DNA of 64,000 nucleotides, taken from the NCBI GenBank assembly GCA_903831815.1, contig CAIKZC010000001.1, positions 20,188 through 84,187 on the forward strand. Direction: 5' to 3'. Positions within the stretch are counted from its first letter, which is position 1. Every line of letters begins with the position of its first letter. Below the pieces are notes generated by a model, which saw nothing but the letters and a program-made list of their open reading frames with translations, made no database searches and was not told the DNA's origin. Both the position numbers and the translations under genes were made by a program. This DNA comes from an uncultured bacterium. GTDB taxonomy: Bacteria; Patescibacteriota; Minisyncoccia; Phycocordibacterales; UBA11359. Of the stretch, positions 4,284 through 45,077 are shown one piece after another.

Positions 4284-5729
4284 TTACTTCAAAATCACAC
4301 TTTGACCGACCGTAAATCCGCCGTTTTTGACCGTTCCGGCCGGCAATTCCAAAACATATCGTACAGGTACGTGAGGCATGTATGCTTTTGGATAACTTTC
4401 CGGTGTCATATTTTCCACAATATCGCTAATTTTTAAATCATCAGTTATCCACAAAACATCAATTGGAAAGTTCATGTCTTTCATCCAAATCCCCCAGCCT
4501 GAATCATAACCAAAAACAAAAAACATGCCGGCGTTTGGAGCCAACGATGTTCTGCTCGAAAGACCTTGAATTTGTTCAGCTTCGGTCGTCGCCAATTCAG
4601 CGTTGATATAAATATTTCCGATTTGAATTATTCGAGAATTGGACGTATTTTTTAAATCGGAAATATTTCTTGGTAAAACCATCTCACCGTTCGGAACTTC
4701 TAGAACCTCGAGGTCTTTTTGTCTTTCTTCACCCACTAAAACATTAGATTGTTGATTTAAGATCGAAATCGGAAATAGATCATAAGTCACATTTTCCGGA
4801 GTCAAAGAAATTTTAACCGCCAAACCGCGAGTGGTCGGGCCGGTATTAGCTTGATCAAAAATAAAATTACCGAGGGAATAGAAAATGAATTTATTTTTAT
4901 AATTTTCTATTGGCTGGATCACATGAGGATGTGAACCAATCACAACATCGGCTCCAGCGTCGATGAAAGAATGTGCTGTTTTTATTTGCGTAGATGTCGC
5001 GTTCATTTCGTATTCGTTGCCCCAATGCGCATAAACAACCACGAAAGAGACTTTATCTTTCGCGTTTTGAATTGCTTGCAAGACATTTTTCAACCCTTGC
5101 TGCGCAAATTCGTTGTAACCGATAAAAGCAAGTTTTTCATCTCGGACTTCGGCAATATATGGCGTAACATCTTGATTTCTTGGATCACCAAACCAATTCA
5201 ATCCCGCTTTTTCTATTGAAGAAGTCGATTGCCTAAAACCGGCCATGCCAAAATTAAGAGTATGGTTGTTGGCTTGATCAAGTAAAGTAAAACCTAGATC
5301 TTTGAGTGTCGGCAAAAGTGCCGGATCAAAAGTAAATTGCAACGGTCCATCTTTTACACCGACCGTTAAAGAATTATTGTAAGTAAAAGGACCTTCGGCA
5401 TTTGCCACCACGATGTCATTGGCATTTCCGGTTGCATCTCCCCTCAAAAAATCCTTGATCAAAGCAAAAGGATATTCCGGACCGTTTAAATCTATCTGCT
5501 CCCTAACTTTTCGATCAAGCATCATGTCGCCAAAAGCTAGAATCGTCACAGGTTTCAATGCAATGGGTTTTACTTCAGACAAAACACTTTTTGACGAATT
5601 TGAGACAACCGAACTAAACCAACCGAAGTTAGTTTGACCGTAAAGAAGCAAACCAAATAAGCCAATAACAAAACACCACAATAAACCGACAATAAAAAAA
5701 ATAGTTTTTTTATTCATTAACAAAAACAA
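4284..5729 (-). CDS. CapA/PGA_cap-family metallophosphatase fused to a C-terminal DUF192-like domain; N-terminal membrane anchor
   Basis: 481 aa. Central region has CapA-like motifs (ILAFGDMMLDR, DQANNHTLNFG, VVYAHWGNEY). The last ~110 aa (GMFFVFGYDSGWGIWMKDMNFPIDVLWI...) resemble DUF192. Confidence 0.55.
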   Translation of the reverse strand: MFLLMNKKTIFFIVGLLWCFVIGLFGLLLYGQTNFGWFSSVVSNSSKSVLSEVKPIALKPVTILAFGDMMLDRKVREQIDLNGPEYPFALIKDFLRGDATGNANDIVVANAEGPFTYNNSLTVGVKDGPLQFTFDPALLPTLKDLGFTLLDQANNHTLNFGMAGFRQSTSSIEKAGLNWFGDPRNQDVTPYIAEVRDEKLAFIGYNEFAQQGLKNVLQAIQNAKDKVSFVVVYAHWGNEYEMNATSTQIKTAHSFIDAGADVVIGSHPHVIQPIENYKNKFIFYSLGNFIFDQANTGPTTRGLAVKISLTPENVTYDLFPISILNQQSNVLVGEERQKDLEVLEVPNGEMVLPRNISDLKNTSNSRIIQIGNIYINAELATTEAEQIQGLSSRTSLAPNAGMFFVFGYDSGWGIWMKDMNFPIDVLWITDDLKISDIVENMTPESYPKAYMPHVPVRYVLELPAGTVKNGGFTVGQSVILK

Positions 5730-42098: not shown

Positions 42099-42491
42099 AA
42101 AAAAAACCGCTAGGATCCTCGGTAGGCCAAGTGCCTATACGAGACTATGAGCGCGGTGTGTGTGCAAGACTCCATCATGAGACGAACGGGCCACGGACCT
42201 ATGCCGGACCGATTACACCATACTCGGTGAAAGGTTTGTAGTTCAGCACTACCAACCTTGTTCATGGGAATCACGCGCTATCCTAGCGATCGCTCAGTAC
42301 CGATCAAGCGGTTGTTTGGGTGTAGGTCGAAGTCGTCCCGCGACCAGTCAGACCAAACCTGAACTTCAACGAAATCGTTGTTTTACCATCTCTTACCTCG
42401 AGGACAGAGACGGACTTATGCGACACATCCGTTGCAAACGTGCCACAACGATGCTTTTAGACTATCACAATGCTTTTTTTTAGCAACTTTT
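42099..42491. other. ~390-nt GC-rich ORF-free segment between prfB and the tRNA-Thr pair; candidate structured ncRNA of undetermined class
   Basis: No ORF of 60 aa or more on either strand. GC content is well above the flanks. Long-range inverted repeat CGCTAGGAT (42108) / ATCCTAGCG (42268) and a 10-bp palindrome AGCGATCGCT. No hallmark motifs for tmRNA, RNase P or SRP RNA could be confirmed by eye. Confidence 0.25.
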
Positions 42492-42565
42492 TGGAGCCGA
42501 AGGTGGGAATCGAACCCACGTTCCCGCTTTACGAAAGCGGTGTTCTGCCACTGAACTATCTCGGC
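42492..42565 (-). tRNA. tRNA-Thr (anticodon CGT), CCA encoded
   Basis: Cloverleaf: GCCGAGA acceptor (one A-C mismatch at 7-66), D arm GTTC-AGTGGCA-GAAC, anticodon stem CCGCT/AGCGG with loop TTCGTAA, T arm GTGGG-TTCGATT-CCCAC, 3' CCA. Confidence 0.75.
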
Positions 42566-42589
42566 AAAAACAACGTAAAAACTTCTCTC

Positions 42590-42855
42590 TGGAGCCGTTG
42601 ACCGGGATTGAACCGGTGACCTCGTCATTCACTTCTACCTCCATTTCGCCAAATTGGCTTATAAAAGGGTTAGACTGTATCTTACGCATACCTTTCGGTT
42701 TAGCGCCCCTTGTCAGTCGTTCGGGCGAAACTATCGCCACGGTCTTACCCACACTTGTGGACTTTAACCGTAATTCGGGCTTCATCATTTCGTTTCCAAA
42801 ATGAAGGGCTATTTAATTAACCAATGACGTGCTCTACCAACTGAGCTACAACGGC
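42590..42855 (-). tRNA. tRNA-Thr (anticodon GGT) interrupted by a 190-nt group I intron after position 36; CCA encoded
   Basis: 5' exon 42855-42820 is GCCGTTGTAGCTCAGTTGGTAGAGCACGTCATTGGT. 3' exon 42629-42590 is AATGACGAGGTCACCGGTTCAATCCCGGTCAACGGCTCCA. Joined, they form a canonical 76-nt tRNA nearly identical in pattern to E. coli tRNA-Thr. Confidence 0.75.
42630..42819 (-). ncRNA. group I self-splicing intron (190 nt, ORF-less) in the anticodon loop of tRNA-Thr(GGU)
   Basis: Helices found by eye: P7 GACUG/CAGUC with J8/7 AAGAUA, P3 GGUUA/UAACC directly 3' of P7, P5 CCAC/GUGG, P6 GGCGA/UCGCC, P8 GCGC/GCGU, P9 GCCAA/UUGGC. The 5' exon ends in U, the intron ends in G (GUG). Confidence 0.65.
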
Positions 42856-42920
42856 GTGTTGGTTTTTAAACATTACTATATTCCGGCCATACAATCAAAC
42901 CGCAAAAAATGCGAAGCCAG

Positions 42921-43925
42921 CTACTCCTTCAGGTCCGGATAAATCGAGCCGATAGTTTCAACAACTTTTTTGACCGCTTCATTGAGAGAAGTTTTTAAAG
43001 TTGCCCCAGACGCATCTTTGTGTCCCCCGCCACCGAGAGCGGCGGCAATTTTAGAAACGTCATATTTTCCTGAATCACGTGTTCGGAAACTTGCTTTTAC
43101 TTTGTTCGGTTCATCCTCAACCATTTTCACGCCAATTTCCCAGCCAATCACAGATTTTAAAGTGTTGGCAATGCCAACAAAAATTTCTTCTTTCTTAATT
43201 TTTTTCTCTTGCAAAGCGTCATAAGAAACAGCGGAAATCGCGACACTATTGTGACAATGTAATGTTACGGAGCTCAAAGCCAATGCTTCAAAAGCAATTA
43301 CTCCGGGAGTATTACTGTTGTCCATATAAGAAAGAGTGGAAGTGAAATCTGGCGCAATCTTGGCCAAATCCGCAGCGGATGCCAGAGTGCTGCTCTTAGT
43401 ATTTTGAAAACTAAAACCTCCCGTATCAGAATACATTCCAAGCATCAAACATTTGGCAATTTCCGGTGTAATCGCAACATTCCATGCGACAAAAAGATCA
43501 TACAAAACCTGACAAGTCGCCGGATAGGTTGCTTCAACCAAATTTATCTCTGCGAAATTTTTGTTGGTTATATGGTGGTCAATATTAATGGTTTTTAGAG
43601 AGGCAGGAAAAACCACGGGGGCAATGCAAGAAATTCGATCGAGACTAGCACTATCTTGAATGATAAAAAGATCAAATTGAGCGAGATCTATCTCAAAAAA
43701 ATTCTTCGGCAGAATTTTTTTGATTCCCGGCAAAATGGCAAACCCCTGCGAAATCTCCGAATCACCTCGAATAACCGTCACCTTTTTATCCATCCCTTCC
43801 AAAACATGCATCATCGCTAGCGCACCACCAACACTATCAGCATCCGCGCTTGGATGACAATGCAGCAAAATATTTTGCGCTTTTTTAATTTCCTCTAAAA
43901 TCTGAGGGGCTAATTTTTCAATCAT
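42921..43925 (-). CDS. DHH-family phosphoesterase (NrnA-like oligoribonuclease/pAp phosphatase)
   Basis: DHH motif region (HCHPSADADSVGG, IDHH) and DHHA1 GGGH motif near the C-terminus. Start trimmed to MIEKL because the ORF-track extension overlaps tRNA-Asp. Confidence 0.75.
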   Translation of the reverse strand: MIEKLAPQILEEIKKAQNILLHCHPSADADSVGGALAMMHVLEGMDKKVTVIRGDSEISQGFAILPGIKKILPKNFFEIDLAQFDLFIIQDSASLDRISCIAPVVFPASLKTINIDHHITNKNFAEINLVEATYPATCQVLYDLFVAWNVAITPEIAKCLMLGMYSDTGGFSFQNTKSSTLASAADLAKIAPDFTSTLSYMDNSNTPGVIAFEALALSSVTLHCHNSVAISAVSYDALQEKKIKKEEIFVGIANTLKSVIGWEIGVKMVEDEPNKVKASFRTRDSGKYDVSKIAAALGGGGHKDASGATLKTSLNEAVKKVVETIGSIYPDLKE

Positions 43926-43932
43926 TTTAATG

Positions 43933-44006
43933 CGCGCCCGGCCGGACTCGAACCGGTGACCTATCCCGTGACAGGGGATTGTTCTAGCCAACTGAACTAC
44001 GGGCGC
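43933..44006 (-). tRNA. tRNA-Asp (anticodon GTC)
   Basis: Cloverleaf: acceptor GCGCCCG/CGGGCGC, D arm GTTC-AGTTGGCTA-GAAC, anticodon stem ATCCC/GGGAT with loop CTGTCAC, T arm ACCGG-TTCGAGT-CCGGC, discriminator G. Confidence 0.85.
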
Positions 44007-44659
44007 ATTTTTATGAACTTATCGAAAACAAGCTTCTTCCTAGGCAAATACAGCTTGTGAAGCTTATTATACATAATTTTGTATAATTTCAAAGAGTCCA
44101 GAGTACTAAAGCTTAATCTGCTACAATTTTTTGCTTTTACCTTATAAATATATCCACCCAATAAACCTTGTTTTTTGAGACAAAAAAGTAGACTTTTCAG
44201 AAAATCATAACTACAACTAGTAAAAGAAGATTGAATAACATGTGTAGGAGTTTTTCTTTTTTTATTCAGAAAACCGACCCAAACATTTCCGTCACCATCA
44301 AAATAGCCTCGAATAAAATCTCCAGCGTATTCTATAGGAATATGAGGCAATTCCATACGTTTTGCCTTATTCATAATCAACCCAAGAGCCAAAAGATCAG
44401 CAAACAGCTCCTTGCTGCCAATTTGTATATTGTAACAATAACCAGTTTCTGAAACTCGTTTTGCTATTTTGTGATTTGACCCGATTGAAAAACGAATCGA
44501 GCGAATCAATTGGTAGTCTTTTGTATAAATTGAAGTAAAATGCGTCCCTCTTTTTGTTTTAATGATATTTCCATCGGCAAACAAAAAGCCCAAGATATAC
44601 GCCATATCTGATGACCACGTTTTAAAAAAGTTTTTGTTGTATTTTTTATATATTGGCAC
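43997..44659 (-). CDS. LAGLIDADG homing endonuclease, free-standing (two LAGLIDADG motifs)
   Basis: 220 aa with YILGFLFADGNI and IRGYFDGDGNV, the two dodecapeptide motifs of single-chain LAGLIDADG enzymes. Its stop overlaps the first 10 nt of tRNA-Asp. Confidence 0.75.
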   Translation of the reverse strand: MPIYKKYNKNFFKTWSSDMAYILGFLFADGNIIKTKRGTHFTSIYTKDYQLIRSIRFSIGSNHKIAKRVSETGYCYNIQIGSKELFADLLALGLIMNKAKRMELPHIPIEYAGDFIRGYFDGDGNVWVGFLNKKRKTPTHVIQSSFTSCSYDFLKSLLFCLKKQGLLGGYIYKVKAKNCSRLSFSTLDSLKLYKIMYNKLHKLYLPRKKLVFDKFIKMRP

Positions 44660-44679: not shown

Positions 44680-45077
44680 ACATAATATAAAAAAGGAGGG
44701 CCGCGCATTTACGACCCCCACACATAACCCGCTAAACATCATCCTCACCTTCTGCGTCCAATAGTGTGCAAAGAGCCGCCTCGCATCTTCATGCAACGCG
44801 CCTCATCAGGTCCGGAATGTCGAATTTGCGACCTTTCGGAATCAACGTAAATCTGACTCATGACACGCGCGGCATACTGCGCACCACGAGACCGCACAAC
44901 AGGAGACCGCCCACCTCGAGATTTTGTGGCCATTTTGCCACCTCCAGAAATGTACTCTACCAAAGCTTTCCGTGAACCCATACACACAGAACGTCCATGC
45001 GTACATGTCTTCGCTTTGGCGTTATCCACCTATAGTCTATTACTATTGACAGATTTGTCAAAGTTTAATAAATGTTG
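44680..45077. other. ~400-nt GC-rich ORF-poor segment between the LAGLIDADG gene and the CAU tRNAs; candidate structured RNA or decayed intron/foreign DNA
   Basis: GC is about 55% against about 40% locally. Only short, Arg-rich, RBS-less ORFs. No confirmed family motifs. Confidence 0.25.

Follow-up and report, generated by a model that had tools for sequence, protein, structure and literature searches.

A tRNA-Thr(GGU) gene of a Patescibacteria genome split after U36 by a compact intron of a divergent group I family

Does the minus-strand locus at positions 42590-42855 of the window (the whole 64-kb stretch of Patescibacteria DNA that we analysed) hold a working tRNA gene with a ribozyme inside it, or the remains of one? 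The first-pass annotation of these 266 nucleotides (nt) proposed a tRNA-Thr(GGU) gene carrying a self-splicing intron of group I. Our analysis indicates that the locus is very probably a functional tRNA-Thr(GGU) gene, split between nucleotides 36 and 37 by a working, compact group I intron that lacks an open reading frame (ORF) and belongs to a published, divergent family of Patescibacteria introns.

The gene is interrupted after U36 by a 190-nt insert (42819..42630) with first bases UAAUU and last bases ...GAAGUG. The segment before it, 42855..42820 on the minus strand, reads GCCGUUGUAGCUCAGUUGGUAGAGCACGUCAUUGGU (36 nt, ending ...CAUUGGU), and the segment after it, 42629..42590, reads AAUGACGAGGUCACCGGUUCAAUCCCGGUCAACGGCUCCA (40 nt, CCA encoded). 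Joined at the conceptual junction CATTGGTAATGACG, the exons give a 76-nt RNA that ARAGORN, run on the conceptual splice product, folds into a regular cloverleaf and names tRNA-Thr(ggt), as the first-pass annotation had read it. The product has G1-C72, C2-G71, G35 and U36, all of which are threonine identity elements. In E. coli it best matches genes annotated as tRNA-Thr, with 78.5% identity across the full 76 nt, a moderate likeness rather than the close one that had been claimed. The parts of the locus are as follows, L137 being the syntenic contig of a close relative and the family profile hidden Markov model (HMM) being the one described below.

42820..42855, minus strand: 5′ exon, nucleotides 1-36 of tRNA-Thr(GGU), with anticodon G34 G35 U36 at 42822..42820; identical to the 5′ half of the intron-less L137 gene.
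42630..42819, minus strand: group I intron, 190 nt, without an ORF of its own; missing from syntenic L137, family HMM score of 162 bits (E 4.6e-48), covariation.
42590..42629, minus strand: 3′ exon, nucleotides 37-76 of tRNA-Thr(GGU) including CCA; identity to L137, anticodon-stem covariation across the intron (alignment columns 1-3 with 383-385).
42492-42565, minus strand: tRNA-Thr(CGU), intron-less neighbour, 24 nt downstream; same arrangement in L137.

The boundaries are fixed by an empty site. We scanned metagenome contigs for the spliced junction, and at least 120 contigs have an uninterrupted gene. In L137, the uninterrupted tRNA-Thr(GGU) is identical to the conceptual splice product at 76 of 76 positions and stands in the same gene order as in the window: an ORF with a LAGLIDADG domain, tRNA-Asp, a DHH-family protein, tRNA-Thr(GGU), tRNA-Thr(CGU) and peptide chain release factor RF2. 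The proteins encoded there are 64% (LAGLIDADG ORF), 66% (DHH-family protein) and 86% (RF2) identical in amino acids to those of the window. Because the match to L137 is perfect and a shift of the intron by one base in either direction alters the product, the boundaries are exactly 42819..42630, in agreement with the earlier reading of a 190-nt insert after nucleotide 36 that follows a U and ends with G.

The insert also lacks coding capacity. The only ORF that touches it, at 42480-42788 on the minus strand (102 amino acids), starts at an ATG inside the intron, extends through the 3′ exon and the adjoining tRNA-Thr(CGU), and has no Pfam match; it is almost certainly spurious, though gene callers could report it. 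We therefore count the intron as ORF-less, and this feature of the first-pass annotation stands, as does the intron-less tRNA-Thr(CGU) next door. The family HMM finds no second copy of the intron in the 64-kb window, and a promoter and terminator scan of 42380-43000 found nothing useful upstream of the gene on the minus strand; a single terminator-like hairpin follows the DHH gene.

The intron is one of many, with copies at this site in no fewer than 118 species-level genomes, nearly all of them bearing Patescibacteria titles. We searched one-genome-per-species contigs with the pattern GACTGACAAGG-N(20-45)-AAGATACAGTC, a 22-base core, and obtained at least 119 loci. Among the matches listed, removal of the insert (176-266 nt; 176-230 nt for nearly every family member) gives a conceptual tRNA-Thr(ggt) at 103 loci. 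With 8 exon bases at either end, the family profile HMM recognises 118 of the 119 loci listed, over its full length unless the locus is truncated. Since the ends of the HMM are flanking exon bases, the host is always tRNA-Thr(GGU) and the site always 36/37: all 99 full-length HMM matches read UGGU before the intron, G at its end and AA(G/U)R after it, each of the 103 members spliced conceptually ends in G, and no other tRNA host occurs among the 118 members listed.

Where the titles of the metagenome-assembled genomes (MAGs) bear a taxon, they mostly name Patescibacteria groups (Saccharibacteria, Paceibacteria/Parcubacteria, Peregrinibacteria, Doudnabacteria and others). The closest relatives of the window intron, among the matches listed, are in Taylorbacteria/Paceibacteria MAGs; its nearest kin are L049 (88%) and the Taylorbacteria MAGs L091 and L108. 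Seven contigs with family introns (L004, L026, L039, L041, L056, L074 and L117) are titled Pedobacter, Gammaproteobacteria or Bdellovibrionales MAGs, probably by mis-binning or mislabelling. We rejected L034 (Bacteroidota, Candidatus Limimorpha) as a member: its positions 4738-4780 fit the 22-base pattern exactly, but only about 45 nt of the HMM match, with E 0.028. This match could be chance or the core of an unrelated group I intron.

We aligned 101 distinct introns with short exon flanks, drawn from the loci picked by the exact core pattern (alignment A1). The anticodon-stem pairs, whose two strands lie on either side of the intron, covary in A1 (U-A 89 / C-G 7 / G-C 3 / A-U 2; C-G 97 / U-A 4; C-G 71 / A-U 30). 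This bears on whether the locus could be a dead tRNA gene, a pseudogene with an inert insertion. Default tRNA finders do skip it, and the view covers 64 kb of the genome, outside which a second, intact tRNA-Thr(GGU) could lie. However, both exon halves are 100% identical to those of the uninterrupted orthologue, whereas the flanking proteins are only 66-86% identical; such conservation despite 14-34% divergence of the neighbouring proteins, together with the covariation of the anticodon stem across the insert in 101 sequences, argues against a pseudogene. In addition, the insert shows compensatory change helix by helix and always lies at 36/37, with U before it and G at its end. A pseudogene is thus highly improbable.

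The alignment also yields the fold of the intron. Unguided RNAalifold on A1 returns the anticodon stem, P1, P2, P4, P5, P6, P7, P8 and P9 in canonical group I order, with compensatory changes in 29 of 44 pairs. Our full model consists of these helices plus P3 and a 2-bp P9.0 that we added. Under it, 96.7% of alignment cells pair, against 79.4% in shuffled alignments and 31-45% when partners are slid by 1-3 columns; double-sided changes occur in 32 of 49 pairs, and none of 500 shuffles attains this or any other measure. Apart from the invariant P4 and P7, the helices are established by these pairs, with covariation in P2, P5, P6, P8, P9 and P9.0. The minimum-free-energy (MFE) fold of the window intron alone contains P2 and P4-P9 (z = -2.68). 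RNAalifold and MFE folding reproduce the order of the group I core, P3-P4-P5-P5′-P4′-P6-P6′-P7-P3′-P8-P8′-P7′, in which the added P3 crosses P7, and P2.1, P5abc and P7.1/7.2 are seen in neither fold. In the window, the elements of the model are placed as listed here in 5′ to 3′ order.

42807..42811, minus strand: 3′ strand of P1; guide GCC (42807-42809) pairs with G34 G35 U36, and UA (42810-42811) with the first two intron bases; U·G in 100/100.
42783..42806, minus strand: P2 hairpin with GAAA tetraloop L2 at 42793-42796; 9 pairs, all with compensatory changes, and present in the MFE fold.
42777..42779, minus strand: 5′ strand of P3, CCC; pairs with GGG at 42707-42709 and crosses P7, forming a putative pseudoknot.
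42739..42776, minus strand: J3/4 (GAAUU), P4 (ACGGUU / GACCGU), J4/5, P5 (UCCAC-AAGU-GUGGG) and J5/4; 3 pairs of P5, all covarying, and present in the MFE fold.
42724..42738, minus strand: P6 hairpin GGCGA-UAGUU-UCGCC; 4 pairs, all with compensatory changes.
42710..42723, minus strand: J6/7 (CGAAC), 5′ strand of P7, GACUG (42714-42718), and J7/3 (ACAA); invariant, in RNAalifold and MFE folds; the P7 strand and ACAA are fixed by the search pattern, J6/7 is not.
42707..42709, minus strand: 3′ strand of P3, GGG, followed directly by P8; from the full-model alignment.
42684..42706, minus strand: P8 hairpin with internal loop CUAAA/UAUG (a variant of the 11-nt-type GAAA receptor) and loop GAAA; outer 3 pairs 97-99% paired, with 5-6 pair types.
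42673..42683, minus strand: J8/7 AAGAUA and 3′ strand of P7, CAGUC; fixed by the search pattern, so that conservation is uninformative.
42669..42670, minus strand: 5′ strand of P9.0, AC, which pairs with GU at 42631-42632; from the alignment pairs.
42638..42668, minus strand: P9 (CCUUU / GGAGG), internal loop and P9a (GCCA-AUU-UGGC); 5 pairs, all with compensatory changes, and present in the MFE fold.
42630..42632, minus strand: 3′ strand of P9.0, GU, and the omega G at 42630; a G here in every one of the 103 spliced members and of the 99 full-length HMM matches.

Both splice sites are marked in the alignment. At the 5′ site, U36 faces G11 in P1 as U·G in 100 of 100 sequences, flanked by two G-C pairs in 101 of 101. 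At the 3′ site, P9.0 pairs the dinucleotide that follows CAGUCUA with the one that precedes the terminal G, and both pairs covary (G-C 55 / A-U 38 / G-U 5; C-G 47 / U-A 43 / U-G 5). At the end of P7 stands G102-C147, with a bulged C101 and, beyond it, A100-U148; the sequence fits a putative guanosine-binding site, and all of these bases are invariant.

A further line of evidence comes from the periphery. In 61 of 65 sequences with GAAA as L2, P8 has an asymmetric internal loop of the CUAAG/UAUG type, which is the classical 11-nt GAAA receptor or a near variant of it; in 33 of 36 with GUAA, GCAA or GUGA as L2, P8 forms a plain helix containing YCC:GGR (Fisher 9e-19, phylogeny not taken into account). 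Only in an RNA under selection for a defined three-dimensional shape would one expect such a switch.

Most of the helices named in the first-pass annotation are borne out: GACUG/CAGUC, AAGAUA and the P5, P6, P8 and P9 hairpins are present in the sequence and in the MFE fold. The exception is P3, which had been drawn as GGUUA/UAACC. The two complementary stretches exist (42765-42769 and 42668-42672), but they are not P3, since this pairing lies 3′ of the 3′ strand of P7, which is not group I topology; P3′ must sit between P7 and P8. In A1, the GGUUA/UAACC helix is 98% paired by wobble only, has no double-sided change and is equalled in 500 of 500 shuffles, and it is broken in 8 sequences with a U-to-C change in P4, which keep P4. 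UAACC instead spans J7/9 (UA) and the 5′ strand of P9.0 (AC) and ends with the base that opens P9. Beside this, we observe that the 5′ strand of P9.0 (42669-42670; A1 columns 266-267) varies by transitions only (A/G, C/U), and thus stays wobble-compatible with an invariant G and U in the 5′ strand of P4 (42767-42768; columns 107-108). This compatibility could be a coincidence, a tertiary constraint or an alternative fold.

The empty-site allele, the covariation in group I helix order and the tetraloop-receptor covariation all bear out the reading of the insert as a group I intron. The absent Rfam match is the one point in favour of another kind of element, be it a protein-spliced (bulge-helix-bulge) tRNA intron, a group II intron or some other ribozyme. 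Against such an element, the helix order, U·G splice site, terminal G, P9.0 and P/Q/R/S-like core strings match group I, a group II intron would have to be far longer than 190 nt, and the site is 36/37, as opposed to 37/38 for protein-spliced introns (PMC13011429). We regard this alternative as scarcely conceivable.

Several observations weigh against the proposal of a working group I intron. First, the Rfam model RF00028 (Intron_gpI) finds no match in the whole window at its gathering threshold and none at E ≤ 10 on 601-nt and 201-nt stretches, and none at gathering in 18 further loci of the Thr-intron family. Second, conservation of the core in A1 is inflated because the sequences were chosen by the exact core pattern, and the control of 500 shuffles takes no account of relatedness. 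Third, P4 and P7 are invariant in A1, except for a U·G to C-G change of P4 in 8 sequences, and do not covary, and P3 (CCC/GGG, 3 bp, 100% paired) is nearly invariant, with a single double change (U-A, 1/101). As P4 and P7 never covary and P7 is fixed by the search pattern, the P3/P7 pseudoknot rests on position, one compensatory change and analogy. Finally, the published splicing assays cover Asn and Asp 35/36 introns only and none of the Thr type (PMC13011429).

The silence of RF00028 can be accounted for in part. As a control, a different tRNA intron, in L011, scores 34.6 bits with E 2.6e-7 (the gathering score is 50), and because this intron scores, the silence reflects divergence of the Thr family and not a faulty search. 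The structure line of RF00028 models P3, not P7, and a 3-bp P3 therefore plausibly explains part of the failure. We accordingly treat the miss as low sensitivity of the model and not as lack of a defining ribozyme feature. The first-pass annotation had offered an RF00028 hit as a check and its absence as a sign against an intron; with no match even at E ≤ 10, that check would have misled.

Some of these observations would also be expected if the intron were derived from group I but no longer self-splicing, so that it needs a protein cofactor (maturase-like or a general RNA chaperone) or unusual ionic conditions in vivo. P3 has 3 bp and P10 is almost absent, compared with a 6-bp P3 in a typical tRNA intron of the same phylum (L011 Tyr); RF00028, which models P3, fails completely; and in vitro splicing of the Thr type is not among the results of PMC13011429. 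However, the other core and peripheral elements, P9.0 and the tetraloop-receptor pair are under selection, as expected of a self-folding RNA, and the short P3 consists of three G-C pairs stacked directly on P8. Moreover, no candidate cofactor gene travels with the intron, and the 8-kb loci vary in content. We consider a non-autonomous intron quite improbable, and we infer catalysis, autonomy from protein cofactors and self-splicing.

By the standard chemistry of group I, a self-splicing intron of this form would work as follows. G34 G35 U36 would pair with the intron guide GCC to form P1, placing the U36·G wobble at the 5′ splice site. The core would fold as P3-P4-P5-P6-P7-P3′-P8-P7′ with a P3/P7 pseudoknot, the 3-bp P3 stacking directly on P8, and the GAAA tetraloop of L2 would dock in the receptor motif of P8. 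A free guanosine bound in P7 would attack after U36. With the terminal G (42630) brought into that site by the 2-bp P9.0, attack of the 5′ exon after this G would then join U36 to A37. As P10 is at most 1 bp, the exons would probably be held together mainly by the anticodon stem of the tRNA.

Default tools skip genes of this type or give them the wrong name. The interrupted tRNA-Thr(GGU) gene escapes both the Rfam tRNA model and ARAGORN with its default settings. When long introns are allowed, ARAGORN finds it with a boundary that is off by two bases and calls it tRNA-His(GUG); across the family, its miscalls are His, Arg, Pro and Leu. The tRNA-His reading, with an intron at position 35, was rejected, as its 5′ exon would end in G and L137 reads UUGGUAA. 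As a result of such misses and misnamings, genomes of the candidate phyla radiation (CPR) seem to be without tRNA-Thr(GGU), and their completeness scores drop.

The first-pass annotation considered a tRNA-Thr host unusual, a view that is out of date, as introns of the same type and site in Patescibacteria have been published (PMC13011429). Specifically, Nakagawa et al. 2026 (mSystems) report tRNA-Thr(GGU) 36/37 introns in 3 of 95 complete Patescibacteria genomes, undetected by RF00028 and detected by the tFind model gpI_bact_tRNA.cm, with two of them miscalled by ARAGORN as Arg(GCG) 34/35 (PMC13011429). tFind and its 21 intron settings are described by Williams 2020 (bioRxiv 10.1101/2020.01.27.920355), and the term "divergent group I introns" is credited in PMC13011429 to Castelle et al. 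2018 (Nat Rev Microbiol). The window intron shares with the published Thr introns the host tRNA, the site, the phylum, the RF00028 miss, the two-base shift in ARAGORN and the lack of a homing endonuclease gene. It is a further member of the published Thr 36/37 family, matching it by host, site, phylum and tool behaviour with no difference detected. In the published tree, a long branch leads to the Thr introns, which group with the subgroup IA tRNA introns of Patescibacteria and not with IC (PMC13011429), whereas the helix complement found here looks IC3-like.

Current understanding is unchanged, since both the family and its escape from RF00028 have been published. Compared with the accessible parts of these publications, what is new here is the breadth of the family (118 members among at least 119 loci, versus 3 of 95 complete genomes), the covariation-backed helix model with its 3-bp P3 and P9.0, the L2-P8 switch and the syntenic empty site. 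The family also gives RNA biology a group I ribozyme, presumably active, of naturally small size; with 101 distinct aligned copies, it is useful for structure and minimal-core studies.

The intron of the Azoarcus sp. BH72 pre-tRNA-Ile(CAU) belongs to subgroup IC3, has about 205 nt and a longer P3, and has a second tetraloop-receptor pair, L9-P5; its P2 GNRA loop docks in a receptor in P8. The window intron resembles it in being compact, ORF-less and placed in the anticodon loop, with a P1 that includes the anticodon, a P2 GNRA-P8 contact, a short P9.0 and no P5abc, P2.1 or P7.1/7.2, but its L9 is not a GNRA loop and its P3 is shorter. The Azoarcus-type insertion after nucleotide 36 is the one that Williams 2020 lists as Ile2.5Ug (bioRxiv 10.1101/2020.01.27.920355).

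The tRNA-Leu(UAA) intron of cyanobacteria and plastids (Anabaena, IC3) is likewise site-specific, without an endonuclease gene, phylum-wide and sporadically lost, but differs in its site (34/35), its length (about 250 nt) and its detection by standard models. Its splicing relies on the anticodon stem, in which the exons pair (Zaug et al. 1993, as cited in PMC13011429), and the near absence of P10 leads us to propose the same role for this stem in the Thr intron.

The tRNA-Asn/Asp/Tyr 35/36 introns of Patescibacteria share the phylum, the kind of host and the P4 strings (AUAACGGU / ACCGUGG) with the Thr intron, but differ in their site, a canonical R/S core (GUAGAGACUAGA / AUAUAGUCC), a 6-bp P3 and their RF00028 scores. 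Some of them carry endonuclease genes, and those of Asn and Asp self-splice in vitro (PMC13011429). One such intron accompanies a Thr intron on the same contig: at 7683-7869 of L011, on the minus strand, a second, more canonical group I intron lies in a tRNA with a long variable arm. Its removal from between CUGU and AAA, with G as its last base, gives tRNA-Tyr(GUA), the intron site being 35/36; it has a 6-bp P3 and a weak match to the Thr-intron HMM (E 0.0075).

Members of the family, which is confined to a single tRNA site, occur in many Patescibacteria lineages. With at most 266 nt, none can accommodate an endonuclease gene, and no member occurs in 0.8 Mb of loci carrying the intron-less allele. 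Identity among the introns correlates with that of the RF2 genes beside them (Mantel rho 0.28, p 0.001, n = 34), so that inheritance is in part vertical. L091 (RF2 87% identical in amino acids) and L137 (RF2 86%), which are at about the same distance from the window, nevertheless differ in state, the former with the intron and the latter without it, which indicates ongoing gain or loss. It is conceivable, though unlikely, that the family represents a distinct minimal group I architecture, with a 3-bp P3 on P8 and a switchable L2-P8 contact, that is kept because guanosine-dependent splicing gates the supply of tRNA-Thr(GGU). An alternative, inactive fold may form by wobble pairing of the 5′ strand of P9.0 with P4. 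If splicing does act as a gate, it would be an RNA-only regulatory step in reduced genomes.

Two neighbouring features of the window are recorded here. The LAGLIDADG ORF (220 amino acids, 43997-44659, minus strand; LAGLIDADG_3 domain, Pfam E 1e-9) has its stop codon inside the 5′ acceptor stem of tRNA-Asp(GUC) (43932-44006, minus strand), which is intact despite the overlap. This overlap is kept in L137 (3-548 and 542-616) at 64% amino-acid identity. tRNA-Asp genes of Patescibacteria are known intron hosts (PMC13011429), and the Rfam search of the window detected no group I core around this ORF and tRNA; the ORF may code for a homing endonuclease, either free-standing or domesticated. A G+C-rich stretch of about 330 nt (about 44690-45030, minus strand), located between tRNA-Met and the LAGLIDADG ORF, has no Rfam match at E ≤ 1. 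It contains a 94-amino-acid ORF with a GTG start (44745-45029) and ends in a terminator-like hairpin and T-run (GGGGGUCG...CGGCCCUCCUUUUUU), and it could be a structured RNA or encode a small protein.

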